Origin: an uncultured Verrucomicrobiota bacterium
Lineage (GTDB): Bacteria; Verrucomicrobiota; Kiritimatiellia; CAIQIC01; Lenti-01
Length of the DNA stretch: 64,000 nucleotides
Assembly (NCBI GenBank): GCA_964526745.1
Contig: CAZGMQ010000009.1
Location: 929-64,928 of the forward strand
Direction: 5' to 3'
The notes under the pieces were generated by a model. It ran no database searches and was not told the DNA's origin. It saw only the letters and a program-made list of their open reading frames with translations. Positions 4,906 to 57,334 of this stretch are shown one piece after another (within the stretch, counting starts at the first letter, position 1; every line of letters starts with the position of its first letter). Position numbers and translations under genes: made by a program.

Positions 4906-5399
4906 GGCCACCTCTATTGTTAGGGAGAAGTTTCGTTTCTTCCCATCTCAACCATACTTCTTTTGAATAGCGCTGGCAAGGGGTTGCAGGCTCTCAGTGG
5001 CCTCTTTTTCACCCTGAATCGGCGAAAGGAAAGGGAAAGTCCTTAACTATTAATATTTATACTTATCCATATTTACTGCAATGAATTATATGAATTTTAA
5101 TCCAAATGGCCTGAAATCATTAAAATCCGCATTTTAGTGCTGCAATGGCTTAAAATAGATCAAAAGAGGCCTGGAAAGCGTCGAAAATGCCAAAAATCAG
5201 ATCAAAACGCCTCTTTTTTGTTTTTTTGGCACTTTTGAGGGGGCTGACGCAGCAAAGGGCGCTCCAGGGGCGTTTTGGCAGGCGGAACTGCCTGCACCTC
5301 TTGTGGAAGTGAACGTTTCTTTATTCAACAATTCGACTGGTTTAGAGGAGGCAGGAAGTGTAGATTCATGGTGATGAATACCGCATTGGGAGCTACGTC

Positions 5400-24603: not shown

Positions 24604-24640
24604 CGGCCCGTGCTCTCCCGAGTGTGGGCCTGTTTTTTCC
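24604..24640 (+). terminator. Rho-independent terminator-like hairpin.
   Basis: GGCCCGUGCUC-UCCC-GAGUGUGGGCC stem (with G-U pairs) followed by UGUUUUUU. Confidence 0.5.
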
Positions 24641-24708
24641 ATAGTGTGGAAACATTTTTTCCATACCATGGAAAAACTGCGAAAATAGTTTCCATACCAT
24701 GGAAACTT
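24634..24708. repeat. Three-box palindromic repeat element, copy A (about 75 bp).
   Basis: Three boxes: TTTTCCATAGTGTGGAAA, TTTTCCATACCATGGAAAA and TTTCCATACCATGGAAA, separated by an ACATTTTT-like spacer and a CTGCGAAAATAG-like spacer. Inverted copy at 41229-41303; direct copy at 61326-61400. Confidence 0.85.
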
Positions 24709-39630: not shown

Positions 39631-40452
39631 ATGAGCACACAGGACATCCAACCGGTCACCATCCTGATCCCGCACTACCAGACGCTGGACTCGATCCGCC
39701 TGTGTCTGCGGTCGATCCGCAAGTATACCCAGCAGCCCGTGACCGTCCGGGTGCTGGACAACGGCTCCACAGATGAATCTCTGGCCTATCTCCAGTCGCT
39801 TTCCTGGATCGAGCTGGTCCACACAGGGTGTGCCAATCACATCTGGAAAGCCCATTATAGGGCCCTGAATCAGGCTGTTTTGGATGTCACCACGCCCACG
39901 TTCCTGCTGCTGCACTCCGATACCTATGTGCATCACCCCGATTGGCTGGGCTATCTGTTCCGCCAGATGCAGGGCGGCATGGCCGCTGTGGGCCCCCGTC
40001 ACCAGCGGATTCCCGTCCGGACCCCGCTCTGGGGCGTCTCGGCGGCTGTACAGAGCCTGCGCTCGCGCGAGTTGAAGTCCGGATTGCCTACCTTACGCTC
40101 CTTCTGTGCGCTCTATGACACGGAACTCTTCCGGAAACTGGATTGCGGGTTTGTGACCCATGAGGGCGAAGACATCACCTTGGTCGCCAACGAAAAGCTG
40201 GTGGAGAACGGCTATCCTATCAAGGGGCTCTCCGCCTTCCACCTCTCGAAGGTTCTATTTCATGCTAGTGCCATTACGCTGATTGAGCAAGGGGTCGAGC
40301 CGGTCAAGCGGCAGAATATGGCCGAGGCCTGCCAGACCGGGGAAAGCTATGTCGACCGCCGCACCTATCGCCGCACCCGCCGGATGCTGGACCGGTTTGT
40401 GGCACTCCCGGCCACGCAGGCCATCCTCTCCGACAGCTCGCTCGACGCCTAA
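39631..40452 (+). CDS. Family-2 glycosyltransferase.
   Basis: ILIPHYQ...VRVLDNGSTDESL GT-A N-terminal motif. Confidence 0.6.
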   Translation: MSTQDIQPVTILIPHYQTLDSIRLCLRSIRKYTQQPVTVRVLDNGSTDESLAYLQSLSWIELVHTGCANHIWKAHYRALNQAVLDVTTPTFLLLHSDTYVHHPDWLGYLFRQMQGGMAAVGPRHQRIPVRTPLWGVSAAVQSLRSRELKSGLPTLRSFCALYDTELFRKLDCGFVTHEGEDITLVANEKLVENGYPIKGLSAFHLSKVLFHASAITLIEQGVEPVKRQNMAEACQTGESYVDRRTYRRTRRMLDRFVALPATQAILSDSSLDA

Positions 40453-41225
40453 AACGGGTCAAACAGCTCATTATCGTCCGGCCCGAACCATCCAATGGCG
40501 TGGCTTTCCGACCGCGCGTCGGAGCGTTCGATGCTCTCTGCCGTGACATGCCCGTCGCACCAGGCCACATTCGCTTTGCCCCGGTGCCGGAAATGGATGG
40601 ACGGCCACGGTGTGCCCCCGCTGGCAAACCGCGGCGGTTCAGCGAACGAATACTCAATCAGCCGGGCCTTTTTGCCGCTTCCCGTCAAAAATGCCGCATC
40701 GGCGAACATCACCGTGGTCGCGGGGGAGGCAATCGCCTGCGGACGCATCCCGACGCGGGTCCCGTCGCCGCCGTTCGGCAGACACACCTCCGAGCCCACG
40801 CCCAGCGCATTATAGCCATAGCCGCCGCAGGAGGCCTCAAATCCATCGGCATCGGGGCGGAATCCCGGGCACCGGCGCACCCATTCGCTGGCCCCGCCGC
40901 CGCCCAGATACTCCGCCAGCGGGCCTTTGGAACCATCGAACGCGTTGCCGTCGCGCACGCCGTGCCAGCGGATGGTGTTGGCGCCCTCGATATCGCTCGC
41001 CGCCGCCACGAATCGCCCGTGGTCCACCGCATACGCCAGGTTCGCCGCCACCAGCTGCCGCAGATTCGAGCGGCAGGTTGCGCCGCCCGCCGCCGCCAGC
41101 GCCGCCGTCATCGCCCCGGCCAGAATCGCCGCCAGCAAGCCGATCACCGTCATCACCACTATCAGCTCAATCAGCGTGAAGCCGGCGCCTCCAGCGCGTT
41201 TGCTCGCAACATGCCGTTTCCCCAT
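40449..41225 (-). CDS. Prepilin-type N-terminal cleavage/methylation domain protein of the H-X9-DG (DUF1559) family.
   Basis: MGKRHVASKRAGGAGFTLIELIVVMTVIGLLAAIL pseudopilin leader + helix. C-terminal HFRHRGKANVAWCDGHV = H-x9-DG. Start at 41225 sits directly beside repeat copy B. Confidence 0.8.
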   Translation of the reverse strand: MGKRHVASKRAGGAGFTLIELIVVMTVIGLLAAILAGAMTAALAAAGGATCRSNLRQLVAANLAYAVDHGRFVAAASDIEGANTIRWHGVRDGNAFDGSKGPLAEYLGGGGASEWVRRCPGFRPDADGFEASCGGYGYNALGVGSEVCLPNGGDGTRVGMRPQAIASPATTVMFADAAFLTGSGKKARLIEYSFAEPPRFASGGTPWPSIHFRHRGKANVAWCDGHVTAESIERSDARSESHAIGWFGPDDNELFDPF

Positions 41226-41228
41226 CCG

Positions 41229-41303
41229 TTTTTCCACACTATGGAAAAAGTTTTCGCCGATTTTCCATGGTATGGAAAAAATGTTTCCATAGTGTGGAAA
41301 AAT
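41229..41303. repeat. Three-box palindromic repeat element, copy B (inverted relative to copy A).
   Basis: TTTTTCCACACTATGGAAAAA / TTTTCCATGGTATGGAAAAA / TTTCCATAGTGTGGAAAAA. Lies immediately 5' of the H-X9-DG gene start. Confidence 0.85.
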
Positions 41304-41319
41304 ATTGGAATGGAGGTAG

Positions 41320-41377
41320 GGACGGCACACCGTGCCGTCCGAAAACCAACAGCCCGGACGCCTCGGCGAGGCGTCCC
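41320..41377 (-). terminator. Two perfect 9-bp hairpins downstream of the DUF4465-like gene (terminator-like).
   Basis: GGACGGCAC-ACC-GTGCCGTCC and GGACGCCTC-GGC-GAGGCGTCC. The minus-strand tail after the second is TTGGTTTTC. Confidence 0.4.
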
Positions 41378-41560
41378 TACCTGAAGGAGAAGGCTGGAAT
41401 AGAATGGGGGTCAGTCTTTTCATTCTTCTGACTTCTGAATTGGCACTCTGTTCGCTTCGCTCTCTCGTTCGCCACGCTTCGCATGGCGCTATAGAATTCG
41501 CGTTCACCCTGCGCCTTCCGGCTTGGGTTCTGCACTCATCTATTCTGACTCCTGTTGTTT

Positions 41561-43015
41561 TCATCTGTTCAGTTTGTAGCGGAAGAATCCGGCCGTGCCC
41601 TGTACCGGCGCATTCGGGGTCCATGCCACTGGAAACAGATTCGGCGTGTATTCCTTCACGGTCGTGAAGCCGGGCAGAGCGGGGGAGGGGGAGGCTGGGT
41701 CGGTCGAAATCTCAATGAGCGGATGCAGGACACCCACCGCATCCAGATCGAAGCCGCCGGAGCCCCAGGTCGGGGTCGGATCATAGATCGGATTGCTATA
41801 GCTGTCCGTCACCGAACCGTCGCCGAACACATCGGCCAGCCGCACGTGAGTCACACGAAGCGTGTCCAGTCCGGGGGTCCCGGCCAGTTCCCGCAGATCG
41901 AACGGCGTGCCATTCCCCTGCAGATGTTTGCCGGCGAATCCACCATAGGAGGTTGGATCGGAAGTATTCATCGCGCCATAGGTGTCGATGGGGTCGGGCT
42001 CCAAGCTGTGGTTCGCAAAACGGATAAAGTTCGTGCCGTCGGAGGAAACTTCGACAAAGGCCAGCTCCAGAAAATCCTCCGTGAAGGAATTCTCGAACAC
42101 GGCGAAGTCCGGTCCCGGTCCGTCCGTGATGGGCAGAGGGAAGGTCAGCGTGATCGTGCCGCTGTCGCCAAGACTGACCACATTGGTCGAGCCGTTAAAT
42201 CTATCGCCGAGTTCCGCCGCGCCCAGCGCGTTGCTGGCATGCATGAACGGATTGGTCACATTCAGGCCCGGCACATAGGCGGCTACGCCGCTTGCCCAGC
42301 ACAGAATGGCAGGATTCGTCGACGCGATCCCGTCGGAGCTGTCCGCATAGGCATAGGTCAGGTCTGCCGCCGCAAAATACATTGGCGTGTTGGCACCCCA
42401 TTCACCCATATCGGTGGTCACCAGTGTCCCGACGATCGAGACCACCTCCGGCGGCATCCAGGAGAGGTCCAGCGTGGACCAGTTCGTCTGGATGAACGAT
42501 TTTCCATCGCGGAAGTCGGCGAGATAATGATTGGTGACCGCCATGACAGAACCTTCGATATCGCTGGCGGCTAGTGTCAGCACAAAGAAATCGCCGTTGG
42601 TGAAGGCGCGGGCCGGGAAGGAGCCGTTCCGGACCGCTTCGGCTGCCCAGGCCGTATTGTTGATGCGAACCGATTTCGGCGCAGCGGGCAGGTCGAAGCT
42701 GATTTCCGGGGCGGGGTCCCAACTGCTGTGATAGGCTACCGCATAGGCATTCGATAGCGATTCCGCCGCCCCGTATTGATTTGCATAGGTACCGTTGGTC
42801 GTGTTGTTCACTGTGGAGAAGGCAAACCCCGCCCACGAATCATACAGAGCGGAATGGAAATAGGTATTGAGAAAGGTGACCGCTTCATCCGTGGACGGCT
42901 GACTGTTCACAACGCTGTCCGGTGTGGGCACCAGCGCATCGAACGACACGACGGTTTGCGCCGCCCACAAAGGTGGAGAGAAAACGAGCATCAACAGGAT
43001 TAAAAAACGCCGCAT
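41561..43015 (-). CDS. Secreted DUF4465-like protein; candidate cobalamin-binding/acquisition protein.
   Basis: Signal peptide [21 protein letters not shown]-terminal [21 protein letters not shown]...NAYAVAY pattern recalled for DUF4465. Preceded by a cobalamin riboswitch. Confidence 0.55.
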
Positions 43016-43039
43016 GGCGGCTGCCTTTCTACCCTTTCT

Positions 43040-43250
43040 GCGAGGGCATTCAGTTACAGTTTCTCCGACGTCTCGTCTTCTGGCTTACGGCAATCTACTC
43101 TTCCACCTTCTCCCGCCCGCGAGGGGGCGAAATGGCTTTGCTGGAATTTCGGAACCGATTACAGCGGCGCGACCGCGCGGGATTCTCACCCGCTTCCGTT
43201 AGTCGCCGGAGGGGTCTCCAACAAGGAGACACTTCCGCACCCTAGCACCC
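43040..43250 (-). promoter_or_regulatory. Cobalamin (B12) riboswitch in the 5' leader of the 41561-43015 gene.
   Basis: Minus-strand RNA contains GGAAGCGGGUGAGAAUCCCGCGCGGUCGCGCCGCUGUAAUCGGUUCC (matches the conserved GGUGxxAAUCC...GCCxCUGUAA core). A B12-box-like UAAGCCAGAAGACGAGAC lies about 60 nt before the AUG. A CCCU..AGGG hairpin overlaps the ribosome-binding site. Confidence 0.72.
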
Positions 43251-43516: not shown

Positions 43517-43574
43517 AAGGGTCTGAATGGGATATTCGTAAGGGTCTGGATACTGGCGTCTAAGGGTCAGAAAT
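43517..43574. repeat. Three direct AAGGGTC(T/A)G(A/G)AT repeats spaced 22-23 bp, at the left border of the phage-derived block. More copies lie inside the next 1.6 kb.
   Basis: aagggtctgaat (43517), aagggtctggat (43540), aagggtcagaaat (43562, overlapping the dam stop). Further AAGGGTC copies near 43661, 44051, 44195, 44527 (doubled), 45085. Confidence 0.6.
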
Positions 43575-44331
43575 TCTGGATGATCAGCTCTGATCTCTGG
43601 ACCTTTCGGCTTGCTGCTGATGACCCGACGGAATACCCCAGCTTGACCTCTGTCTGCTGGAAGGGTCTAAAAATTGACCGCACCTCTTTGCAGTTCCCCA
43701 GGGACAGAAGGAACCTTCCCTTGATGCCGGCCAGCAAATCCGCCAGGGCCTGGAACCGATCGAATGAGACCGCGTAGTCATCTGTTGAGTGAAAGTATGG
43801 CGGATCGATGAAGAACAGCGTGTGAGGCCGATCGTAGCGCGTCAGGCAGTCAAAGGCATCCAGATGCTCGATGTTGACCTTCTCCAAACGCCAGTGAACA
43901 GCCAGAAGGGTTTCTGCAATAGAACTCAGGTTCAGGGCCGGTGACCCGAGCGTTTTCATCCCATAGACCCGGCCTTTCGGTTTTCCACCAAAGCAGAGGC
44001 GTTGTAGATAGAAATACCGAACAGCTCTCTGAATATCCGTAAGGGTCTCCGGCCGCTTCATTTTCTCGATTTCGAATATCTCTCGGGACACTACGGCCCA
44101 CTTGTAATACTCTATGAAGGGTTCCAGATGATTCTGAATGACTCTCCAGAATGTGACCAGCTCGGAGTCTGCGTCATTGATCACTTCTGCCTTGGAAGGG
44201 TCCTTTTGGAATAGGACCCAGGCGGCTCCACAGAAGGGTTCGCAGTAGCAGACGTGATCCTCGGGGATCCGGGCAATGATTCTTTTGGCGAGGCGGCTCT
44301 TCCCGCCGAGGTAGGCAAAGGGACTATTCAT
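43567..44331 (-). CDS. dam: DNA adenine methyltransferase (Dam / D12 class).
   Basis: FAYLGGKSRL, CEPFCGAAWV (motif I) and FIDPPY (motif IV). Confidence 0.8.
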   Translation of the reverse strand: MNSPFAYLGGKSRLAKRIIARIPEDHVCYCEPFCGAAWVLFQKDPSKAEVINDADSELVTFWRVIQNHLEPFIEYYKWAVVSREIFEIEKMKRPETLTDIQRAVRYFYLQRLCFGGKPKGRVYGMKTLGSPALNLSSIAETLLAVHWRLEKVNIEHLDAFDCLTRYDRPHTLFFIDPPYFHSTDDYAVSFDRFQALADLLAGIKGRFLLSLGNCKEVRSIFRPFQQTEVKLGYSVGSSAASRKVQRSELIIQNF

Positions 44332-44487
44332 CAGAACGAACTTCCTATACCGTGCTTCCTGACTTCGGGCCAGTCTGGAGGGACCGTCATTGGCACGGAC
44401 TGCCGGGAATTAATCTTCCGGTGGATTGAGTGGTTGCACCCACTGAATCGGTTCCCCGGACACTCTCACACGAGAGGCCGGAAATGG

Positions 44488-46003
44488 TTATATCAGGCCG
44501 TTGATGGCATTGGCTAAAAGGGTCTGTTCGATTGGGTCTGTGTCCGGAGGCTGGAGCAGCTGGTCCTGGATGGCGGATAGTGCTGCTTCTGGATTTGTGC
44601 TTTCGCGGAGGATCCGCGGGATGTTGGCGTAGCGTTCGCGGAAGTGCCGCGCGACGGCCGCGGTGCCGGCGTCTGCAATGGCATCGGCCTGGTCAGCATT
44701 ATCGGTGTTCGCGGCGAAAATAGGGGCTGCCGCCGACCTCCCGGTCGGCGGCGAGGACTGTCTGCGGGAGATGCTGTATGCGCTGGACGGGGATGCCGAG
44801 GCGTTCGGAGGCCGTTGAAAGACCATCATCGGTTGGTTCAAGGCCTGCCTCATACAGATTGGAGAGGAGTTCGGAGGTGCGCTTCACCTCTTCGGTCGTG
44901 TCGCCGGCGAAGCTGATTGTGGGAGCCCGGCCAGGATAGCCATTGAGTTGCAGCCAGGGTGCCACCACCTGATGTCGGAGCGTATTTCCAAGGTTGCGAG
45001 AATCAAACTTCCGAATGTCATCCCGGACATCCCCCTGGAGATCCGCAGTCCCGGACCCCATTCCGGTCGGTGATGTTTCGGATGAAAGGGTCTGCCCCAG
45101 GATCAGCCTGGAGATCTCCCGCCGGCAACTGGTCTTAAACTTCTCGAAACCCTCCCCTGAGTCGCGGGCCGCTTCTTTCAGCTCGATCGAAGAGTCACCC
45201 GAAAGGACCAGGCCGCCCAGCTGCGTGGCATATGAAATGGCCGACTCAAGGATCCGGCGATCATGGTTGTCATTTGAATCCGTTTTCCCGACCATGAACG
45301 GCGAGCCGTAGCGGCCGAGGAATCGTGCCCACCAGGTCGTGGCCATGGCGGAGAGCAGCCAGAGGAAGAAGATTGCCCGCATGGGTCCACCGAACCGGTC
45401 CGGGGATGTCAGGGTATGGCCTCGATGCAGGATGTATCGTGTGGAGTCCAGAGGCTCCGCATCGATGAATCCACAAGTTTCTTTCTCTGTGACAATGGCC
45501 TGTCCATTCTTATCCCATCCGATGAGGCGATACGGAACCGGAACCAGTTCGGAGATCATATAGCGCCGGCCCAGCTCCGGACATGCCGGATCCGCAGGGG
45601 CAAACACCTTTTCGGCGATTGAAAGCGGGAAAATCACGGCATCCAGAAGATGATTGCAGCACAGATCTAGAGTATCGGATTGACGAAGCATCAGTTCTGC
45701 CGCATCGGCAGCCTCGACATCCTTCGGGTTGTCTTTGTCCCATGGCGCTACCATGATGGCATCGCCAATGACGGCATTCTTTCGCTGGAAAAGGGTTGCC
45801 TGAATATGGGTATCTTGCAGGACTACATCCCGGCAGAGTTGCCACAGCTGGCTGGAATTGCCCTGTTCCGACATCCGGATGATAGCCGCGACGCGATCGA
45901 CATCCAAATTGGTGGTGCGGAGCGACTGTTCATCGCGGGTTGAAACCGGGGTCAGACGACCCTGGCTGGGTGCTTTGGTTTTCTTTTTCGGTTTTTTAGA
46001 CAT
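44488..46003 (-). pseudogene. Mu-gp29-like portal protein (DUF935), apparently split by a frameshift near 44700-44760.
   Basis: 434 aa ORF 44699-46003. A roughly 70 aa continuation in another frame (ORF 44488-44853) overlaps the same DNA. Together they give about 505 aa, the expected portal length. Confidence 0.5.
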
Positions 46004-46012
46004 GCCGTTCTC

Positions 46013-47524
46013 CTATGACAAAAGGTTTCCGCTGAATGGGGTGCCGATGTTCACGGCCTTTGCTTCGATCTTCCCGCCCCGCTTGTTCAGGGCGTAGAGG
46101 GCGAGCTTCCCGCCATCGAATGTGTCCGCGTGATTGCCGGCGTTATCCAATTCGTTATCAAATCCGCCCTTTACCTTTTTAGCCAGGCGCCGATCCTCTT
46201 TGACCCACCTATCCGGTGGCATGGCGATTTGAGAATCTTCGTAGACCTCGACATACCGCTGGCCGGTATATGTTTTCATATTCATCGATTGACCTTGATA
46301 GTCGATCGTTTCGGATGAAGAGCACAGCATCACACGGGTGTATTTCCGGAACTCTTTCCGCACATTTGCGGCATAGTATTTTTCATTCGATGAATCCACA
46401 GCCAGACCGGAAGCCCGTCGTCCCGTCGCATCTTGACATGATTCAAGGATTTCACGCAGAAGGGCTTTTGCCTCATCCGGGTTTGCCTCTTTGAAGCGGA
46501 ATACCAGCCGTTCCACATATAGGTACTGCGACACCTTCTGCGTCACGACGATGCTGGAAGGGTTAGACATCTTGTTGGTGGTGGTTGCGACATCATACCC
46601 GATGGCATATGGATCGCTGGTCATCGATATGGCCCAATCCGCCGGCAGATCATTTTCGGCTGCCACGCAGCTCATGCGGTAACCGAGTTCCTGTGCCGCT
46701 CCGATAGCGGACAGCGGAATGGCTGCGGTGCCGCCGACGATGAATTTGAGCGCATAGGAGCGGTCCCAGGTGTCCCTGTTGAAATAGTTCTTGCGATGTT
46801 CATCCGGAGAAATTTGAGCACCGGATTTCATATCGTACAGGTGAATGCCAGCCAGATCGGCATCCCAAGCATCGACGCGATGGACAGGGATACCTAGCTG
46901 GGATGTGTAGGTGTTCCCGCTTGGATTATTTTCAAACTCTGTTCCGGGTTCTGGGGCGGCCAGCTCGTAGGAGAAGTGGGCGTCATCTGACGGTGGCGTG
47001 GTAGCCATGATGAGATGGAATGTTGGATCCCTAGAGATGATAGGTTCCATTTCACCGAAGAGAGCGCGGAAATCCTTGATGAATCCGATTTCATCCATGA
47101 AAACCCAGCCAGAGTATCCGCGCGCCGTCGCGATATTTGGTGCGATGACCTTCATTCGAGAAACAACGTGTTCAGAATGGCGGAAGGTGACTTCGAGGCG
47201 GCCCTGATCGAACAGATCCATTAGATCACTATCTTCGAGTCCTTCCCCATTCGATTCAATGATGACCCCATTGTCTATCGAGACATCACGGAGCGTTTGT
47301 AACAGTTCGCCAAAGATCTGCGTGGCTTTGAACGGAAGTTCAGATCCGACAGATAACGATGCCGATACGAATGTACAAAGGATGCCAGGATTCTCCAGCA
47401 TGACCTGAAGGATCTTGAAAGCAAAAAGGGTGGATTTTCCGGCCTGGCGCCGCCAGAGAAGCAGGCACACGCGCAGGGGTTTCATCCAGCGCGAAGCAAA
47501 CTTCTGATAGCGGGTGAGTTCCAT
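46013..47524 (-). CDS. Terminase large subunit.
   Basis: Walker A WRRQAGKST, Walker B VFMDEIGF, C-terminal nuclease-like acidic motifs; 503 aa. Confidence 0.75.
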   Translation of the reverse strand: MELTRYQKFASRWMKPLRVCLLLWRRQAGKSTLFAFKILQVMLENPGILCTFVSASLSVGSELPFKATQIFGELLQTLRDVSIDNGVIIESNGEGLEDSDLMDLFDQGRLEVTFRHSEHVVSRMKVIAPNIATARGYSGWVFMDEIGFIKDFRALFGEMEPIISRDPTFHLIMATTPPSDDAHFSYELAAPEPGTEFENNPSGNTYTSQLGIPVHRVDAWDADLAGIHLYDMKSGAQISPDEHRKNYFNRDTWDRSYALKFIVGGTAAIPLSAIGAAQELGYRMSCVAAENDLPADWAISMTSDPYAIGYDVATTTNKMSNPSSIVVTQKVSQYLYVERLVFRFKEANPDEAKALLREILESCQDATGRRASGLAVDSSNEKYYAANVRKEFRKYTRVMLCSSSETIDYQGQSMNMKTYTGQRYVEVYEDSQIAMPPDRWVKEDRRLAKKVKGGFDNELDNAGNHADTFDGGKLALYALNKRGGKIEAKAVNIGTPFSGNLLS

Positions 47525-48087
47525 TAATCCTTTTCCATGTCAGCCATGAGGTCGATGAGCTGCTGAACCTGGATTGACCTCTCAGCGCCGGAAGTGGCGA
47601 TCTTCTGAGCGCGTTCATCCTTAAACCAGGAGAGGAATTGGTTTGCGACCTGGAAGCGGAACTTGTCGCGATCCAGCTCTGCTGCATCCTGGGCGAGTTC
47701 GAGGCGCTGCTTGTCGAGCTCCAGGCTTTTGGAGCGGGTGACGGCCTGTTTGACGGAAGCCAGAACCTTGGCGGCCTTGATGGGATCCAGATCTGGATCC
47801 GAAAGGCTGTCGACCAGGTCGAGCATCGTGCGGTCGACCATATCGAACCCATCGGCCTCGATCTCCCGGCGGATGGATTCCGCGCGGGTCCGACGCTCTT
47901 CCAAATTCCGCTGCTGTTTCAGCCAGGCTTGATAATGACGGGGAGACTTCTTGAATGAAGAGTAGTTCTGAGGCTTGTAGGGTCCATAGCCGTGACCCTT
48001 CAGCCAGGCATTGAGCTGCTTCCAGTTCTTACGGTCCCGGATCATGAAACAGAGTTCTTCCCGGACTTCGTACGGGAGGCGCGTCAT
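47524..48087 (-). CDS. Mu-gp27-like DUF3486 protein (small terminase-like).
   Basis: Internal start MTRLPYEVREELCFMIRDRKNWKQLNAWLKGHGY... resembles Mu gp27 (ITRLPQELRDEL...). The ORF-track 5' extension is out of character. Confidence 0.6.
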   Translation of the reverse strand: MTRLPYEVREELCFMIRDRKNWKQLNAWLKGHGYGPYKPQNYSSFKKSPRHYQAWLKQQRNLEERRTRAESIRREIEADGFDMVDRTMLDLVDSLSDPDLDPIKAAKVLASVKQAVTRSKSLELDKQRLELAQDAAELDRDKFRFQVANQFLSWFKDERAQKIATSGAERSIQVQQLIDLMADMEKD

Positions 48088-48100
48088 CGGGATATAAGGG

Positions 48101-48382
48101 TTAAGGGTACTGGCGCTCACGGAACGTGACTCCTTCTGAGGTGGCCTTATAGTCGACCAGGCCGGACAAGGGACGATTGACGCGCTTGACCAGGCCGAAG
48201 CCTTCCAGGACCGCAAGGGCGTCGGCCACATGCGATTCATCAAACTCGCCATCCACGGCACCCGCGCGCCGGATCCGGTTGGTCAATGTTTCAATGGAGA
48301 ACTTATGCGCTGCCCGATCGGCCAGATGGCAGATCAGCGCTTCGCGGAGCTGTTCTTTTCGCTGTGTGTCTTGATCCTTCAT
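48101..48382 (-). CDS. Hypothetical small protein.
   Basis: ORF track; probable start MKDQDTQRKEQL. Confidence 0.35.
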   Translation of the reverse strand: MKDQDTQRKEQLREALICHLADRAAHKFSIETLTNRIRRAGAVDGEFDESHVADALAVLEGFGLVKRVNRPLSGLVDYKATSEGVTFRERQYP

Positions 48383-48386
48383 TGAA

Positions 48387-48731
48387 TCAGCCTTTCGTGT
48401 CCTTGGAGATATGAGTCTCAAGCATGCCTTCGATTCGTCCCAGTCGATTAGCCGTGTCGATCCCGTTTCGGTTACTTGTTGTAATAAGGGTGTCGATTTT
48501 CCCCTTCAGATCTCTTGTTTCCTGGCGCATAGGAGCGAATTCGCGATCGATGCGGGCGTGTACCCCATTGATCTCCGAAGTCAGCTCCGTTTTGCGCACA
48601 TATTTCTTCGCCATTTCTTCCGGGACCGGCGGGGATCGCTTTTTGAATCCGAGGGCTGCTGCGATCGATGCCAACGATGCGCAGAGCACGGTGATGGGCC
48701 AAATGACATCTCCTGGTGTGATATCGCTCAT
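48387..48731 (-). CDS. i-spanin (Rz)-like protein: N-terminal TM helix plus periplasmic coiled coil.
   Basis: Internal ATG at 48731 gives MSDITPGDVIWPITVLCASLASIAAALGFKK... followed by heptad-rich sequence. It starts 2 nt after the upstream gene's stop. Confidence 0.5.
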   Translation of the reverse strand: MSDITPGDVIWPITVLCASLASIAAALGFKKRSPPVPEEMAKKYVRKTELTSEINGVHARIDREFAPMRQETRDLKGKIDTLITTSNRNGIDTANRLGRIEGMLETHISKDTKG

Positions 48732-48733
48732 TT

Positions 48734-49972
48734 CTATTCCTCTGAAAAAGATGCCGACGCTGGCCGGCCGCTGGGCATGGCAGCAGCCGGGGCGACGGCA
48801 AGATTGGTTGATGTGTTTCGAGTGGAAATGGGCGGGACGGCCGAGCCGATGGCTTGGATGGTGGCGACATCGGACGGCCCGGCCCATTTGAAGTGATAGA
48901 AGATCCTGGCGACTTCGCCGCGGTCGGCTCCCTCTTTGATCCAGGCATAGGCCACATCCGGCTTTCCGGGACCTTCCAGGCCGGAACACAGCTGCTGAAT
49001 GATCATTCCTGTGTCACTGACATTCAGGCGGTTGACCGGGAAGGTGTCGGTAATCTTGAAAGGATGGACGGCCGCCCAGTCAAATGGTGCCGGGCAGGAG
49101 GACGGGCGGGATCCGTGATTGTAGATCAGTTTGAACCCGAGCGCATCGAATTCGGAAGCCATTTGCTTTTCGAGCTGAGTCCCGTAGCTGGTGCGGCCGG
49201 ATTCGGCCACGGGCTGCAGCAAGACGTTGGCCGGCCCACCGGCTTTGACTACACCAATGGCCCAGCTGACCATCTCCGGGGAGTGCTGCAGATCCACGCC
49301 GGCATCGCCATACTTCCGCGGTCCGCCACGGCTTCCCTGGTTGTCGTTGAAGACGCTGTTGAAAACCCACATGCCATTTGCACGGCAATGGCGCAGCAGC
49401 AGAGCATAGGCCGCCTCGGTCCATGCTCGGAATTCTGTTTTGTTGGCGGCGTAACGGCCCCAGGATGAAAACTCAATGTCATAGATTCGGACGCCCCATA
49501 ATGTGCAGGCGTCGAGATCCGCCTGGAGAATAGCCAGGGACTCTTCCAGAGTGGCGCCGCCATTGGCCCAGCGGTTTGCCCTCCCATAGCCAGCGAGGGT
49601 CCGGCCGACCTGCAGCGGAGGCAGCGCGGCGGATGGCGCCGGCGGGTCAACATTCGGGTCTATGACTGGATCTGGGTCCGCTTCATCCTGGTTGACCACC
49701 TCGGCAAAATTCGCGGCGATCCCGTTCAGTTGCTCCATCAGGGCATCGTTCGACATGACGGCCTCCGCGAGGGCCACGACATTCGGGTTTCCGGCGATGG
49801 CGGAAGCGATGGCAACAGCATCAGCCGGATCGATGGAGGCCGCAACGGACCCGATCTGGCCGACCAGGGCATTCGGATTGAGATCCAGCTGGTTTGTCGA
49901 TGTGCAGCCAACGCCGCTCCACCCGATCAGAGCAAGCAGCAACGCGATGACTATAAATTTCATGTCCTTCAT
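48734..49972 (-). CDS. Secreted lipoprotein, glycoside-hydrolase-like (possible cell-wall hydrolase).
   Basis: Lipobox LIGWSGVGC; 412 aa; start overlaps the caspase-like gene's stop. Confidence 0.4.
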   Translation of the reverse strand: MKDMKFIVIALLLALIGWSGVGCTSTNQLDLNPNALVGQIGSVAASIDPADAVAIASAIAGNPNVVALAEAVMSNDALMEQLNGIAANFAEVVNQDEADPDPVIDPNVDPPAPSAALPPLQVGRTLAGYGRANRWANGGATLEESLAILQADLDACTLWGVRIYDIEFSSWGRYAANKTEFRAWTEAAYALLLRHCRANGMWVFNSVFNDNQGSRGGPRKYGDAGVDLQHSPEMVSWAIGVVKAGGPANVLLQPVAESGRTSYGTQLEKQMASEFDALGFKLIYNHGSRPSSCPAPFDWAAVHPFKITDTFPVNRLNVSDTGMIIQQLCSGLEGPGKPDVAYAWIKEGADRGEVARIFYHFKWAGPSDVATIQAIGSAVPPISTRNTSTNLAVAPAAAMPSGRPASASFSEE

Positions 49973-50691
49973 TCTTGATCCTCTTTGGGTTGGAGCTTCA
50001 TTGCCGGGAGATCCCGGAAAGTGGTGGCGCCGTATTCCTCATAGTGCGGAACCTGGTTGCGCGGCATGATGGCCGCAGCGGCATCGAACCATTCCTTATA
50101 AGAGAGCTTTCCGTCGAAAGTGTTGAGCAGCGCTTGAGTGAAGACGCCGCCCGAGTCATCGCCATAGGAGGATTCACCATCTCCGGATCCGCCGAAGTGG
50201 ATCAGAGAGGCCCGGAAGCTGCGAGGCATGGATCCGGAAATAGATCGGGCCCGAAAATTGGTGCCGGAATTGCAGGTGTCAGAAATGAACAGGATCCGGA
50301 TGCCGGCCGGCGCCTCTTTCCAGAGCTTCCGGAGGATGTCATCCGAGAGCTGGCCATCCCATAGGCAAAGGGTCTCATCGAGGCCGTCTTCCTCATCGCC
50401 GTCGGTGTCCGGGATCTGTCCGCCGTGTCCGCTTATATATAGGATAAAGAGATCGCCAGCCTTCATCTGCTTCCAGGCCTTCCGCGTGGCGCGGATCAGA
50501 GCCTCTGATGTGGCCTCCCTATTGTGGAAGAGATCCGTCTGGATTCCCCCCCCCGAGCAGAGCAGTCCGAACATCTGGGCATCCACATCGCATCCGGGGC
50601 AGTTGCCATTCCATCCATCATAGGCATTTGGATCCACATTGGTGAGGCCGGCCACAACGGCATGGGCATTCTTCGGAAGGTTTTTACGCAT
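49969..50691 (-). CDS. Standalone caspase-like peptidase C14 domain protein.
   Basis: LFILYISGHGGQ (catalytic His) and ILFISDTCNSG (catalytic Cys, D-x-C-x-SG). N-terminal HAVVAGLTNVDPNAYDGWNGNCPGCDVDAQMF caspase-fold start. 240 aa with no signal peptide. Confidence 0.7.
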   Translation of the reverse strand: MRKNLPKNAHAVVAGLTNVDPNAYDGWNGNCPGCDVDAQMFGLLCSGGGIQTDLFHNREATSEALIRATRKAWKQMKAGDLFILYISGHGGQIPDTDGDEEDGLDETLCLWDGQLSDDILRKLWKEAPAGIRILFISDTCNSGTNFRARSISGSMPRSFRASLIHFGGSGDGESSYGDDSGGVFTQALLNTFDGKLSYKEWFDAAAAIMPRNQVPHYEEYGATTFRDLPAMKLQPKEDQE

Positions 50692-51295
50692 GATATGGGC
50701 CTTTCAGATCGAGACGGTATTGAAGGCCCTCAGCGGTCAACGCCAGCGCGGAGATGTCATGAAGGCGCCCAGACTCCACCCGCTTCTCCGTGGTTCGGGG
50801 CGTGGGGTTATTTTTGTTCCAGGCATCATGATTGGCGCTCATGCCCGGTTTGCTCCAGGCGCCGCGGACGGCCTCGGTGCAATACCAGGCCCATTCCGCT
50901 CCGGCCTGGCTCTTGAACCAATCGCCCAGGAGGGCCTTTGCGATGAGGCGCGGATAGGCGTACCAATCATAGGGCATTCCTTTGGCGTGCTCCAGGAACC
51001 ATTCGTTGGCCATCTTCCGGTCCAGATCCGTAGCGCCCGGCATGCGAAGGACGGCGATCTTGACGCCGCGATCGCGCATGTGGTTTTCGTAGGTTTCGAT
51101 CGGCGTGAGAACGCCGCCCTTCAACATGAGTGCTTCGCCAATGAACAGCTCGCCGCGATAGCGGCAGACCATGGCGTCGTGGCTTCCGCGGGATCCGATG
51201 GCGCGCTGGATGAACCAGCTCGTGACGCCGGGGGAATAGCGATGGATGATGTCGCCCGGAAGAAGTGCCTCCCTATTAATCAGAGGAATCGTCAC
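50684..51295 (-). CDS. Permuted-papain-fold NlpC/P60 (YiiX/DUF830-like) peptidase; candidate endolysin.
   Basis: N-terminal GDIIHRYS...GSHDAMVC and C-terminal WYCTEAV Cys motif. GTG start after a GGAGAT Shine-Dalgarno. No signal peptide. Confidence 0.5.
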   Translation of the reverse strand: MTIPLINREALLPGDIIHRYSPGVTSWFIQRAIGSRGSHDAMVCRYRGELFIGEALMLKGGVLTPIETYENHMRDRGVKIAVLRMPGATDLDRKMANEWFLEHAKGMPYDWYAYPRLIAKALLGDWFKSQAGAEWAWYCTEAVRGAWSKPGMSANHDAWNKNNPTPRTTEKRVESGRLHDISALALTAEGLQYRLDLKGPYHA

Positions 51296-51504
51296 GCGGG
51301 ATCTCCAAATGAAATGACGCCGGGCCTATCTAAGGAGGAAGGTTGACCCGGCGTCTGGTGTATATATGATCCGCGAAGAGATTTACCGCATGGCATGCCT
51401 CCTGTTCCTGGAACTGAAATGTGACTGTGCACAATCATTACAGGCCTCACGATGCACGGGATTGCTCATCACGGAAACGAGCAGTGGGACTCGTGGGGAA
51501 GGCA

Positions 51505-51540
51505 TAAAAAAGGCCGCCGGCGAGTGCCGGCGGCGTGTAT
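51505..51540 (-). terminator. Rho-independent terminator (minus strand) after the 51556-52515 gene.
   Basis: On the minus strand: GCCGCCGGCACUCGCCGGCGGC hairpin followed by CUUUUUUAU. Confidence 0.6.
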
Positions 51541-51555
51541 TAGCGGTTGTTTGAA

Positions 51556-52515
51556 CTATCTTGCTGTGTGTAGAACCTTAAGAGAAACCATAAAGGGCTT
51601 CTTTCGATTGGCTGATGGATCAAATCGATCCGTGATATCCACATCGCCGCGCAGGTATGTTTTGCCGGCCAGAGCATCTGGAGAGATTGACGGATCCAGT
51701 ACCATCTTGATTCGATTCTGCGCATTCGCAAGGATTACGCTCCAGCCCTTGCTGCCGTCATCATAGTCGGCTGCCCGGATATCCATCGCCTGATTGTCGA
51801 CGGAGCGAACGGTTTCCTGCCTGTCCACTGGCGGCATATCAAGAGGAACTTCTGATATGGATTCTTTGGGGATTGTGGCAGATTCACCACCCGTCATGCC
51901 AATTTGGATATTGTCGCCACCTGAACGCTGAGCAGGATGAAGCAGCTTGACCGTGTCCTCTGCCATTCTACGTTCATCAAACCGAGCGGCCTCAATGATG
52001 CTGACTACATCCCCGGCTTTGATTGCTGCAGAATCTCCGATGTTGATGATCGTATTATTGTTAAAACCCATCGGAGCACTTTTGGCGGTAAACTGATCTC
52101 GAAGACAGCCTCCGAAATAGCCGCTGCCCACAATGATTCCTCCAATCACAACCCATGGAACAATAGGATGAATATCCGCAAGCGATTTCACATGGAGCCT
52201 CTTTCTAATCTCCGCAATATTTCTGTCCATGGCCTTTTTGGATCCAAAAAACAGTTTGACCAGGATGTCTTCCGTAAATGGGCTTTGGTGGGTGATTTCA
52301 TTGAGAACCGGAACTGCGTATGCTTTTCTCATACCCGTTGAAAGCGAGTCAAGGACAATTGGAACTCTGTTAATAAAGCGCTCCAAGGCAACAAGCGAAT
52401 CCGCTGCATCTTGTAAAGAGAGCAGCGGAACATCATATCGGATTGAAATTGGCCACTCCGTTGCAATCACGCCACGACCACCGGACAGAAGGGCTTTTCT
52501 TGTCGATTTTCTCAT
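51556..52515 (-). CDS. Hypothetical single-TM protein.
   Basis: ORF track; TM segment IHPIVPWVVIGGIIVGSGYFGG. Confidence 0.4.
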   Translation of the reverse strand: MRKSTRKALLSGGRGVIATEWPISIRYDVPLLSLQDAADSLVALERFINRVPIVLDSLSTGMRKAYAVPVLNEITHQSPFTEDILVKLFFGSKKAMDRNIAEIRKRLHVKSLADIHPIVPWVVIGGIIVGSGYFGGCLRDQFTAKSAPMGFNNNTIINIGDSAAIKAGDVVSIIEAARFDERRMAEDTVKLLHPAQRSGGDNIQIGMTGGESATIPKESISEVPLDMPPVDRQETVRSVDNQAMDIRAADYDDGSKGWSVILANAQNRIKMVLDPSISPDALAGKTYLRGDVDITDRFDPSANRKKPFMVSLKVLHTAR

Positions 52516-52691
52516 CTATTTCCTTTCGCTAATCTACTGGCCATCGCTCTATACTCCGGCACTGCTGGCCTTTTGGCCGGGTGGGTCCTTCCATCCCGCT
52601 ATTCAACCTTCGACGTTGAAGATGCCATTGCAATAGGGGCAGATGTTTTCGCCGCTGTGGAGAATGGTTCTCCTGATAGGTTTCGATTCCG

Positions 52692-53345
52692 TTATCGGTG
52701 CCATGTGACCGGATAGGCCTTCTCTTTGCCATTAACGATTACAAACACTTCCGGATATTCTTCATCTCCTGAAATTTCTTCCTTTTCTTTTCTCCCGCCA
52801 GAAGCGAGGTAAATTTCCTTTTGGAAATCCCCGAATCGAACAATGGCGCGCAAATTTGATGCGGTTTTGTTTTTGATGCTAAATGAAATTCTATATACTC
52901 CGCCGGCAACCCGCCGAAGGTTCGAAAACCCCTGGCCTGTGATGCTGGAGTCGGTGAGGTATGCGCTAACCCCACTGATATTCTTCACGGACCTGTCTTT
53001 TACGCCGAGGATGTTAAATACATAAACCGGGAATTCCTGTTTGGATTGTGCCGCCCGTCGGGACGAAATAGATTTATTGTACCGCGATCGCGCCTGTTGC
53101 ACAGAGGCCCGATATTGGGTTGCTTTTGCAGGATCGTATCCGAAACGTTGTTGCATATCCGATGGGAGTTCCTGGAAAAATAGTTTGGCTATGCCGCCAG
53201 AGTGCATGACGGTTATTCCGTCTGGCTCTGCCCTGGTTATTTTAACGTTTTTGTAAACCGTGCCGAGCATGTTGGTTATATTGTCGGCCATCGCCAATGA
53301 CAGGCAAATGACGATAGCGAATATGGTGCAAAGCATGAGTTTCAT
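52692..53345 (-). CDS. Secreted hypothetical protein.
   Basis: Signal peptide MKLMLCTIFAIVICLSLAMA. Confidence 0.45.
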   Translation of the reverse strand: MKLMLCTIFAIVICLSLAMADNITNMLGTVYKNVKITRAEPDGITVMHSGGIAKLFFQELPSDMQQRFGYDPAKATQYRASVQQARSRYNKSISSRRAAQSKQEFPVYVFNILGVKDRSVKNISGVSAYLTDSSITGQGFSNLRRVAGGVYRISFSIKNKTASNLRAIVRFGDFQKEIYLASGGRKEKEEISGDEEYPEVFVIVNGKEKAYPVTWHR

Positions 53346-53384
53346 TGTGTTTCTCCTTTTATCAAAAAGTTCCTATCAGGTCCC

Positions 53385-53726
53385 CTATTTCCTCAGTTTC
53401 TTCTCCACCGCAGCCACGCGCAACAGGATTTCATCCAGCTTGGCCATTATGGCGCTGGCACCAGGCAAATAGTCCGCCGGATACTCGCGGGTGACCAGCG
53501 GAGGCGTGTCGATTAACTGTTGAACCTTGGGCTTCTCGGGCGGTGCAATCCCGGATTCTCTCTCAGCTTCATCAATTTTAATGAGCATACGGCGGCTAGG
53601 AGATGTCTTGCCAGACTTCCATTGGGACATAGCTGGCGTAGAACAGCCGAGCCGTGTCGCTGTCTTTTGCCAAGTCCAGCCATTGGTATCCATTAACCGG
53701 ACGATTCTGTCCCATGAAAAGGCCAT
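53385..53726 (-). CDS. Phage repressor-like HTH (XRE-type) DNA-binding protein.
   Basis: HTH WTWQKTATRLGCSTPAMSQWKSG. Transcribed divergently from the Ner-like gene. Confidence 0.6.
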   Translation of the reverse strand: MAFSWDRIVRLMDTNGWTWQKTATRLGCSTPAMSQWKSGKTSPSRRMLIKIDEAERESGIAPPEKPKVQQLIDTPPLVTREYPADYLPGASAIMAKLDEILLRVAAVEKKLRK

Positions 53727-53786
53727 GTAAGTATATGTAAGTTTTCCTTGACTGTTTTCTTATACGTTCTTATATTGCCTTACATG
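53724..53786. promoter_or_regulatory. Divergent promoter/operator region between the repressor and the Ner-like gene.
   Basis: Inverted repeat CATGTAAG (53724-31) ... CTTACATG (53779-86); each arm overlaps one of the two start codons. Direct repeat ATGTAAG at 53735. TTGACT (-35) at 53748 and TATATT (-10) at 53771. Confidence 0.55.
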
Positions 53787-54002
53787 ATGCGGCAACCTAT
53801 AGAGAAAAACAAGGGCAAACGCCCATTCGTCATAAGCGGCATCTGCGCGGCTGCTGTCGAACTCGGAGTAACACGTACACACCTTTACCGCGTCCTTCAG
53901 GGAGAGCGGAAAAGCCCGAGAATTGAATCCAGTGAGTTTTATAGGCAGTCCATGGCCGCAAAGCGCCAGTTTGAAAACCAACCGAAAGGGCACGAACAAT
54001 GA
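53784..54002 (+). CDS. Ner-like small HTH DNA-binding protein.
   Basis: HTH AAAVELGVTRTHLYRVLQGERKS. The ORF-track start at 53748 is the TTG of the -35 hexamer; the true start is probably the ATG at 53784. Confidence 0.55.
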   Translation: MMRQPIEKNKGKRPFVISGICAAAVELGVTRTHLYRVLQGERKSPRIESSEFYRQSMAAKRQFENQPKGHEQ

Positions 54003-54892
54003 GTCGAAAATACAAGATCATCGGGTTCGAGTGGATTGAAAAGACCAGCCTGAAGCCGCATCCGGATGCGCAGTTGCCGATGGCGCCGACGGACCAGGCA
54101 TTCCTGAAGAACAGCATCCAGAGCGGAGGTCTGATCCAGCCGCTGCTGGTGCTGGAGAAGGCCGACAAGCTGGATGGGATGTTTCAGGTGGTGGATGGCT
54201 GCAACCGATTCGACAGCGATCCAATCGACGGAAAATTCCCCTGCGTCCTGATCCAGTGCGACAATGTGCGCGAAGTGGCCCTGGAATGCCTTGGCACCGG
54301 TCGCCAGCGGTCGGCCGGGAACCGGATTCTGTCCTACATGGAATTGCATCGGGCAGAGGTGGTCAAGGCGGCTGAATTTGGGGCGATTGCGGCGGCCGGA
54401 AATTCGTTTGGGGTGTCACGTGACACCCCAAAAATACAGGGGAATTTGTCCAATTTTACCTCCGAAGCTATCGCAGCGACCCTTTCAGTCAGCAAAAAAG
54501 ACGTTCTCCTTGCCATCGATTTGCTGATGTGTTTGGAGCGGAAATGCACGGCGCCGGTGAAGGCCGGGGCGCTGATGACACCACCGCGGAAACTGGACCT
54601 GAAAAAGAAGGAAGACCAGGTCTATTTCGAGCTGCTGAAGCAGACACATGCGGGCGTGATGGGCGGGGGCTCGCCAATCCGTCGCTGGAAGGCCGGCCTG
54701 GCGGGCAAGCATTCGCAGGCCGAAGGGCGGACGGCCATCGATTACGCGATGCTGTTCAAGGAAGGGCTGCACCATCTGCGGTCGGCAGCGAAGCACTGGG
54801 AGGACATCACGTTCGAGGACCGCGCAACGCTGGTGGAACTGGCATCGCAAGTCGGCGTGCTGCTGCCGTCTGACATCAAGCGGGTGCTGTGA
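53999..54892 (+). CDS. ParB-like nuclease-domain protein.
   Basis: N-terminal ParB/Srx fold pattern (PLLVLEKADKLDGMFQVVDGCNRF); high GC3. Confidence 0.55.
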   Translation: MSRKYKIIGFEWIEKTSLKPHPDAQLPMAPTDQAFLKNSIQSGGLIQPLLVLEKADKLDGMFQVVDGCNRFDSDPIDGKFPCVLIQCDNVREVALECLGTGRQRSAGNRILSYMELHRAEVVKAAEFGAIAAAGNSFGVSRDTPKIQGNLSNFTSEAIAATLSVSKKDVLLAIDLLMCLERKCTAPVKAGALMTPPRKLDLKKKEDQVYFELLKQTHAGVMGGGSPIRRWKAGLAGKHSQAEGRTAIDYAMLFKEGLHHLRSAAKHWEDITFEDRATLVELASQVGVLLPSDIKRVL

Positions 54893-55428
54893 TGAAGCGG
54901 GCAACCAAGGTTATTTCTTCCAGAGGAAAGGGAAAAGAGGAATTGGCTTCCACCCGCGCGGATAGGGCTCTCCAAACGGCCAGCGGACCAAAGCGCGGCC
55001 AATTTCCCAATAAGCCAAACAGGCGCGGCCAATCTCTTCGGAAAGGCCCGTCAGCGAATCTGGTTTCGGCTGAAGGCTCGAAAAAGCCTCGTGTACGGGC
55101 TTTGCGGAAGTCAAAAGCTGAAGGGCAAGGAAGCGAATACGAAACACTTTGCTTGGCGGCCAAATCTGTTGCCAGCGGTCTCTCATTTCTTGAGTTCCTG
55201 CGATGTAGTCAAGGGCGGCATCCATGTGTTTCTCGGACCATTCGCACCAGGAAGGAAGCCCAATTCTTTGCAGGATTAGTCGAAGACGCTTTATATCTTC
55301 TTCCCGAAACGTGCGGCGCAGTTCTGCTTCGGATCGCTCGGCAAATGAAGACGGAATTTCGGGGATTGAAGTTACCACGGGACAAAATCTATCAAACCGC
55401 GCGGCGCGGTGGAAGCCGAAAGGGTTAA
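54889..55428 (+). CDS. Highly basic hypothetical protein (uncertain; low GC3).
   Basis: ATGA overlap with the ParB-like stop; its stop lies 2 nt before the downstream ATG after an AAGGG Shine-Dalgarno. GC3 is about 50%, against about 75% in the neighbouring genes. An alternative antisense ORF exists at 54911-55483. Confidence 0.35.
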   Translation: MMKRATKVISSRGKGKEELASTRADRALQTASGPKRGQFPNKPNRRGQSLRKGPSANLVSAEGSKKPRVRALRKSKAEGQGSEYETLCLAAKSVASGLSFLEFLRCSQGRHPCVSRTIRTRKEAQFFAGLVEDALYLLPETCGAVLLRIARQMKTEFRGLKLPRDKIYQTARRGGSRKG

Positions 55429-55430
55429 GA

Positions 55431-57302: not shown

Positions 57303-57334
57303 CGCGGCAGCCAAATAAATAGGAGAGCACCGGC

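Follow-up and report, generated by a model that had tools for sequence, protein, structure and literature searches.

Eight divergent DUF4465 proteins were shown in 2026 to bind vitamin B12, and binders in this family are known from the Verrucomicrobia Coraliomargarita and Haloferula and from the planctomycete Mucisphaera (PMC13398666). They fold as augmented beta-jellyrolls, and their HI loop, (G/N)TPAYF, is conserved, with 97% of members keeping its tyrosine (PMC13398666). In Bacteroides thetaiotaomicron the DUF4465 proteins are BtuJ1 and BtuJ2 (PMC13398666; PMC13616437), which, like Coraliomargarita D5EK51, belong to a set of single-domain proteins of ~230-300 amino acids that are mostly lipoproteins and usually sit beside the TonB-dependent receptor BtuB. 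BtuH, another B12-binding protein, has been reported from 37 gut Bacteroidota, and its known fusion partner is BtuG. Here we compare these systems with a locus in a 64,000-nucleotide stretch of DNA from an uncultured Verrucomicrobiota bacterium (Kiritimatiellia; contig CAZGMQ010000009.1), hereafter called the window. The minus strand of the window from 40449 to 43230 probably constitutes a cobalamin-responsive capture cassette of a Kiritimatiellia-like bacterium of the Planctomycetes-Verrucomicrobia-Chlamydiae (PVC) group, made up of a riboswitch, a two-module binder and a pilin-like partner. The apparent fusion of BtuJ- and BtuH-like modules and the riboswitch-linked pilin-like partner are what is new at this locus, and the pilin-like gene is its most unusual part.

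The initial annotation of the window, made from the sequence alone, had placed a cobalamin riboswitch in the minus-strand leader of the binder gene. A cmscan of the whole window against Rfam returned three matches above the gathering score, and among them was the cobalamin riboswitch RF00174 at 43075-43197 on the minus strand, with 69.7 bits (E = 3.8e-15) and a gathering score of 31.5 bits. The core strings that had been quoted for it, GGUGAGAAUCC... and GCCGCUGUAAUCGG, were both found in the sequence, as was the B12 box AGCCAGAAGAC (43085-43075). By eye we also found a P1 helix closing the aptamer, in which CUCCGGCG (43211-43204) pairs with CGUCGGAG (43070-43063), so that the aptamer runs from the 5' to the 3' strand of P1 at 43063-43211. 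In six relatives 85% of cells in this register were paired; sliding the register lowered the figure to 23-52%. Compensatory changes were seen in two pairs. With n = 6 this support for P1 is not significant against shuffles. Directly 5' of P1 lies a small hairpin, GUCUCC-UUGU-UGGAGAC (43214-43230). The Rfam match covers model positions 47-167 of 189, and in two relatives (L006 and L009) the equivalent of this hairpin, CUUCCAUGGUGGAGG, falls within full-length RF00174 matches; the hairpin therefore probably belongs to the 5' portion of the aptamer that the local match omits.

The gene behind this leader (41561-43015, minus strand) encodes an exported protein of 484 amino acids. Its open reading frame and translation agree with the signal-peptide protein proposed at the outset, the Sec-type signal (residues 1-18; 42962-43015) being read by eye and conserved in an alignment of 24 homologues; the signal has no lipobox cysteine, and the protein also lacks a PEP-CTERM tail. 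The suspected resemblance of the N-terminal region to DUF4465 proved strong. Pfam PF14717 matched residues 58-218 (42362-42844) over profile positions 3-175 of 176, with E = 4.6e-27 and 95.9 bits (gathering cut-off, 25 bits), and no other family was matched in a Pfam scan of the 484 residues. The HI-loop motif reads NTPMYF (residues 209-214), and both P211 and Y213 are invariant among the 24 homologues. The closest solved relatives are the Coraliomargarita protein D5EK51 (9HMU, the best), 4JQR, BtuJ2 (9I2L), BtuJ1 (9FCT) and 9QPM. More than 100 full-length homologues of ~480 amino acids were found at 47-73% identity, in metagenome-assembled genomes (MAGs) named Kiritimatiellia, Lentisphaerae, Verrucomicrobia or Opitutae.

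In sharing PF14717, the HI-loop pattern NTPxYF, export and a B12-riboswitch locus, the N-terminal half is like BtuJ1, BtuJ2 and D5EK51. The window protein differs from them in that it is not a lipoprotein, carries an additional C-terminal region of ~265 amino acids and is encoded in a locus without a TonB receptor. The initial annotation had equated the DUF4465 region with BtuH, and here it was mistaken, since in Bacteroides DUF4465 corresponds to BtuJ (PMC13398666; PMC13616437) and it is the C-terminal half that resembles BtuH. Its view that such a protein would be poorly described in PVC-type organisms has likewise been overtaken, by the 2026 demonstration of B12 binding by DUF4465 proteins of Verrucomicrobia and Planctomycetes (PMC13398666). 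Its core proposal, a riboswitch-controlled, exported DUF4465 protein as a candidate for B12 capture, was supported on every point that we tested. The combination of riboswitch and DUF4465 gene is thus a fresh example of an arrangement already known, no longer new for PVC bacteria; it is what existing knowledge of B12 scavenging predicts, with one lineage added.

Residues 225-484 matched no Pfam family. An AlphaFold2 model of this half, built with 24 homologues, reached a predicted local distance difference test score (pLDDT) of 90.8, and a Foldseek search with it ranked 8blw_B first (E = 2.7e-4). Because the BtuH B12-binding domain is the sole domain common to the two top fold matches (PMC13616437), we assign the fold to the BtuH type; in the predicted structure it is the same as in solved BtuH domains (BtuH2, PDB 7BIZ; BtuGH/BT1490, PDB 8BLW chain B). 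The predicted beta-sandwich spans residues ~228-431 (41723-42334) and is followed by a conserved C-terminal tail at residues 432-484 (41564-41722), delimited by alignment and model. Similarity to BtuH in sequence is not significant: a profile of 30 C-terminal domains searched against the PDB gave 8blw_B as its single match (E = 0.082 over 39 residues). The window protein therefore appears to be a fusion of a BtuJ-like and a BtuH-like module, with fold and context observed and with homology and ligand binding putative. It differs from the described BtuH proteins in its fusion partner, BtuJ-like rather than BtuG, and in its reach, since those were reported from gut Bacteroidota whereas the family of the window domain was found in PVC bacteria, Proteobacteria, Desulfobacterota, Spirochaetota and Bacteroidota. 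If this domain, which lies outside Pfam and occurs in many phyla by itself or joined to BtuJ, is the BtuH module as it appears to be, the Bacteroides relay model of B12 capture would reach far past gut Bacteroidota.

Downstream of the binder gene, at 40449-41225 on the minus strand, lies a gene for a prepilin-type H-X9-DG protein of 258 amino acids. Its N-terminus carries the G/FTLIEL cleavage and methylation motif (residues 14-35; 41121-41186) and scored 26.9 bits with TIGR02532 (cut-off 16.3) and 24.3 bits with Pfam N_methyl (21.2), while its C-terminal H-X9-DG motif (residues 211-228; 40542-40595) scored 27.1 bits with TIGR04294 (19). With the pseudopilins GspG, GspH and ComGC and with H-X9-DG/DUF1559 proteins it shares the G/FTLIEL N-terminus, the glutamate at position 5 and a long predicted N-terminal helix, and with H-X9-DG proteins also the C-terminal motif that defines TIGR04294. 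In contrast, it falls far below the cut-offs for the pseudopilin families and forms a well-conserved subfamily of its own: GspG (TIGR01710) gave 33.7 bits (cut-off 88.85) and GspH (TIGR01708) 24.8 bits (cut-off 80), in each case through the N-terminal helix only. Against DUF1559 (PF07596, SBP_bac_10) it scored 17.2 bits, below the cut-off of 23.3, and some of its orthologues have a precomputed PF07596 match. Orthologues are 55-84% identical, and thus better conserved than the binder, with the subfamily motifs CGGYGYN, EYSFAEP and LGWFGPDDN and three invariant cysteines. In one lineage (L086-L089) the pilin-like gene is followed by genes for a DGC-domain protein, a thioredoxin and a DsbD-type membrane protein; together with the invariant cysteines, these neighbors suggest a possible link to disulfide handling. 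In the planctomycete Planctopirus, members of the very large H-X9-DG/DUF1559 superfamily make up the biggest set of paralogues, with 68 copies and without known function (PMC10632474), and a search of the literature on the function of H-X9-DG/DUF1559 proteins found nothing.

We surveyed the surroundings of these genes from both sides. In 14 genome loci of four PVC classes (Kiritimatiellia, Verrucomicrobiota, Pirellulales, Planctomycetaceae and Phycisphaerae as named) and in five further loci (L086-L090), the gene directly after the binder gene is an orthologue of the pilin-like gene; in many loci the binder stop and the partner start overlap or lie within 65 nucleotides of each other. For a reciprocal sample, 80 metagenome loci were picked by the pilin-like protein alone, 48 of which had at least 1.5 kb of upstream sequence. 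A BtuH-like gene lay upstream on the same strand in 43 of the 48, and 30 of those 43 also had DUF4465; none had a TonB receptor. The five loci without a BtuH-like gene all had RF00174 upstream on the same strand: in one (L141) the riboswitch immediately precedes a pilin-like gene that has no adjacent binder gene, and in two (L157 and L160) the genes between riboswitch and pilin-like gene encode proteins with PEP-CTERM or dockerin tails. Three-part loci had the riboswitch in 17 of 19 cases, and the remaining two end short upstream. On the counts of the reciprocal sample, the partner subfamily therefore belongs to the cobalamin riboswitch regulon, with the BtuH-like domain as its closest partner; its putative role in B12 acquisition is read from synteny and gene order only.

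From the binder side, with one genome taken per species, 80 loci were returned. RF00174 was found upstream on the same strand in all 13 of the full-length or two-gene relatives first tested, which cover Kiritimatiellia, Pirellulales, Planctomycetaceae, Beta- and Gammaproteobacteria and Bacteroidales. RF00174 also preceded the genes in nine of ten further PVC loci. Of 12 loci arranged as DUF4465 - TonB receptor - C-terminal domain, 6 had RF00174 or the related RF01482. By this distribution the link between the riboswitch and the binder family is old and widespread. TonB-dependent receptors adjoin a standalone BtuH-like domain in 48 of the 80 loci, some of them with DUF5074/BtuG, BtuFCD or BtuR, and BtuFCD and BtuR are often near standalone C-terminal-domain genes. 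The gene order varies with lineage, being DUF4465 - TonB receptor - C-terminal domain in Verrucomicrobiae and Opitutae, DUF4465 - TonB receptor - DUF5074/BtuG - C-terminal domain in Bacteroidota, and two adjacent binder genes before or after the TonB receptor in Proteobacteria. An H-X9-DG neighbor was present in 20 of the 80 loci, and in no locus did it occur together with a TonB-dependent receptor (0 of 80; Fisher's exact p = 6e-11, a test that ignores shared ancestry). The partner gene holds the place that the gene for the outer-membrane B12 transporter takes in other bacteria. One locus (L028) carries BtuF, BtuC and BtuD genes and then a riboswitch, DUF4465, the C-terminal domain and H-X9-DG, again with no TonB receptor. 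Among the ten largest other open reading frames of the window we found no transporter or other B12-related gene, and in a relative (L090) there was no transporter gene within 10 kb.

In Pirellulaceae and Aquisphaera the binder gene has as its neighbor an H-X9-DG gene of another type, a canonical DUF1559 member. In L024, L037 and L041, three loci of Pirellulaceae, the riboswitch directly precedes this DUF1559 gene, which is followed by the gene for a protein of ~2,013 amino acids with both the BtuH-like and the DUF4465 domain (5914-11955 in L024). We considered these H-X9-DG genes as orthologues of the window protein and rejected this, as only the N-terminal helix aligns; on alignment they represent a second, independent association and not the same subfamily. 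An Aquisphaera locus (L052) has two same-strand cobalamin riboswitches, at 5326-5515 and 7862-8053, one before and one after the binder gene. In a Phycisphaeraceae MAG (L084, 5776-8709) separate BtuH-like and DUF4465 proteins, each PEP-CTERM-anchored, are followed by the pilin-like gene, and no riboswitch reached the gathering score in that locus.

These observations can be arranged into a mechanism. When intracellular cobalamin is ample, the class-I-type aptamer (43063-43211) would bind it, and in the bound state the short platform behind it would hold the ribosome-binding site and start codon in hairpins and so block translation; when B12 is scarce, the mRNA would be translated and the product exported through the Sec pathway, as its signal, read by eye, predicts. 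One chain would then present two modules of corrinoid-binding type, a DUF4465/BtuJ jellyroll recognized by sequence and a BtuH-like sandwich suggested by predicted fold and operon context. The binder would most likely capture free corrinoids outside the cytoplasm and hand them on, comparable to the relay of BtuJ, BtuH and BtuG proposed for Bacteroides. The partner may work with the binder as a pseudopilus-borne or membrane-anchored acceptor that moves the corrinoid inward, or alternatively as an element that exports or displays the binder. A broader proposal, which we put forward tentatively and which may well prove wrong, is that in Kiritimatiellota, Planctomycetota and some Verrucomicrobiota a riboswitch-controlled H-X9-DG protein replaces the TonB-dependent BtuB and imports corrinoids with the BtuH-like binder by a pseudopilus or fiber route. 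Pili-like fibers of Planctomycetes bind dextran ahead of its active uptake (PMC5394234), an observation that by analogy offers a precedent for a fiber-based route and is not evidence for it. If the proposal is true, this would be the first function assigned to any member of the H-X9-DG/DUF1559 superfamily, and the partner would connect to fiber-associated uptake in Planctomycetes (PMC5394234). Since B12 would be its known effector, the binder its defined protein partner and growth a simple phenotype to follow, such a member would make the question of function in this superfamily directly testable.

The same partner gene could instead encode a cargo-specific pseudopilin of type II secretion that exports or displays the BtuJ-BtuH binder and has no part in B12 import, an explanation that we regard as doubtful. 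The canonical prepilin cleavage and methylation motif, Glu5 and the partial matches to the GspG and GspH models all fit it, as does the closeness with which the partner tracks the BtuH-like domain; moreover, because the binder has neither a lipid anchor nor a PEP-CTERM tail besides its Sec signal, it would need a route to the surface. However, the partner never shares a locus with a TonB-dependent receptor, and the BtuH- and BtuJ-like genes in TonB-type loci manage without it, so that substitution for the transport step fits this exclusion better than a general need for export. The riboswitch-controlled pilin-like gene of L141, with no binder gene beside it, and GspG and GspH scores far under their cut-offs also speak against a secretion pseudopilin.

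It is unlikely, in our estimate, that the DUF4465 half alone binds B12, with the C-terminal domain a carbohydrate-binding or anchoring module of the CBM32/discoidin-like kind that would tether the binder to the cell envelope or glycans, and with the pilin-like neighbor merely syntenic and under expression signals of its own. Sequence searches with the C-terminal domain returned from the PDB only an antibody Fab light chain (E = 0.14, not significant) and from NCBIfam the LIC_13355 lipoprotein family at 19.6 bits (cut-off 120). The BtuH-like domain contains many invariant Asp, Glu and Asn residues, and in the C-terminal tail, which the model folds into two beta-strands (model residues 227-233 and 253-259), W465, G476 and F477 are invariant in the alignment of 24 homologues and the sequence GFFRYKL is found. 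Standalone BtuH-like copies carry PEP-CTERM, type IX secretion system (T9SS) or dockerin tails and are therefore taken to be surface proteins.

Control of the two-module binder is most likely exerted by the riboswitch at the level of translation, given a gap of ~38-48 nucleotides between aptamer and start and conserved hairpins that flank the Shine-Dalgarno sequence and the AUG. The expression platform (43009-43062, minus strand), defined by folding and kept in 12 relatives in an RNAalifold consensus, consists of a P13-like hairpin, GCCCU/AGGGU (43047-43031), the Shine-Dalgarno sequence GAAAGG (43029-43024) and a second hairpin, GCCGC-CAU-GCGGC (43021-43009), with the AUG (43015-43013) in its 3-nucleotide loop. 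The start codon at 43015 lies ~48 nucleotides 3' of P1, and the distance from aptamer to start is 38-48 nucleotides across the window and its relatives. The two hairpins persist in the 12 relatives and are recovered by RNAalifold. In more distant relatives the first hairpin covaries by inspection (GCCC/GGGC, CUCUU/AAGAG, CCUCU/AGAGG), and in three of these (L114, L121 and L082) the Shine-Dalgarno sequence itself forms its 3' arm. The aptamer sequence CGCCGC is complementary to GCGGCG at the start of the coding region, a candidate anti-sequester pairing, and both sequences are invariant in relatives; the L5-L13 kissing-loop pairing was looked for in the window and relatives and was not identified. 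The arrangement resembles the translational cobalamin riboswitches of the Escherichia coli btuB type in its RF00174 aptamer and B12 box and in a short platform with the ribosome-binding region in or near a hairpin after P1. The Shine-Dalgarno sequence as a hairpin's 3' arm, seen in the distant relatives, is the classic btuB-type arrangement, whereas in the window's subfamily it lies between two small hairpins with the AUG in the loop of the second.

Premature transcription termination, with GCCGC-CAU-GCGGC and the following UUUUUU (43021-43001) as an intrinsic terminator, is very unlikely. A terminator scan did report the site at 43021-43009, where a stem of five G-C pairs is followed by six U. 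The stem is short, though, and includes the start codon, and terminator-like matches in the region numbered 4, compared with 3.7 in shuffles. In 11 of 11 aligned relatives the hairpin is kept and the U-run is absent; being unique to the window, the U-run led us to discard the terminator as a candidate.

It is exceedingly improbable that the cassette belongs to the adjacent Mu-like prophage as a phage-carried B12 gene: Dam methylase, Mu-type portal and terminase genes do lie immediately upstream (43567-47524) with MuA/MuB-like genes further on, but the portal and Dam matches were found only in contigs of the same organism, and the idea is already contradicted by synteny, because in relatives the cassette stands immediately before nusA-infB-rbfA-truB, phage genes are absent and the other flank varies, which makes the cassette chromosomal.

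Several points weigh against the cassette as we read it. Ligand binding, regulation and localization of its parts in the window are predictions from sequence, and the Rfam match is only a local one. The AlphaFold2 model of the partner, built with 29 orthologues, is poor (pLDDT 57). The aromatic position of the DE loop in the DUF4465 domain, Tyr in most homologues (NNTTYAA), is occupied by Trp in the window (NNTAWAAE); the alignment shows Trp there in PDB 4JQR as well. In stability the platform folds do not exceed shuffled sequence (z from -1.7 to +0.7), and across the 12 relatives the platform hairpins show one compensatory pair only, covariation being nearly nil because these relatives are too similar. 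The hairpin that the initial annotation had drawn over the ribosome-binding site consequently stands in part: in the minimum-free-energy fold of the window GAAAGG does pair, its partner being the U6 of codons 4-5, and a loop holds the AUG, but a z-score of only -1.7 and little covariation fall short of bearing it out. Finally, the spacer between binder and partner is 335 nucleotides long with strong hairpins and a palindrome array, so that co-transcription in the window is likely rather than certain.

This spacer (41226-41560, minus strand) is longer than in relatives, where the gap is 111-224 nucleotides or the genes overlap. Just after the binder gene, at 41314-41382, it contains nested GC-rich inverted repeats with 28-nucleotide arms and two perfect hairpins of 9-10 bp inside, which could be a terminator, an attenuator or an mRNA-stabilizing structure between the genes. 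In one relative, a Kiritimatiellia MAG (L009, 5312-7930), there is no stop between the binder and pilin-like genes and a single frame of 873 codons runs through a palindrome-rich spacer; possible causes are misassembly, loss of the stop codon and a genuine fusion.

Elsewhere in the window, the region 43567-58330 is a Mu-like mobile element or its remnant that is absent from relatives at this position. It includes genes for a Dam-type methylase (43567-44331), a Mu portal (44699-46003), a terminase-like protein (46013-47524), a caspase-family peptidase (49969-50691), a 692-amino-acid transposase-like protein with a helix-turn-helix (55224-57302) and a MuB-like AAA ATPase (57335-58330). On the other side of the cassette, a family-2 glycosyltransferase gene (39631-40452, on the strand opposite to the pilin-like gene) lies between the pilin-like gene and nusA; it was found only in contigs of the source organism, and in relatives nusA is directly next. 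Group II intron domains RF02001 (104.6 bits) and RF01998 (43.8 bits) were detected on the plus strand at 62559-62807.

Just upstream of the pilin-like gene, at 41231-41300, the spacer also holds a triple palindrome array, TTTCCAYNNNNRTGGAAA, composed of three 17-nucleotide palindromes TTTCCA[TC]NNNN[AT]TGGAAA at spacings of 22 and 31 nucleotides. Copies of the array occur in the window at 24636-24705, 41231-41300 and 61329-61398, and the palindrome had 17 matches where 0.04 were expected. Because the copy at 24636-24705 sits between convergent genes, an intergenic repeat like the repetitive extragenic palindromic (REP) elements is a better fit than an operator or promoter. However, many orthologous loci have the array at this same place, and many gene calls for orthologues in other species open with its translated trace, FSTPWK or FHTMEK.

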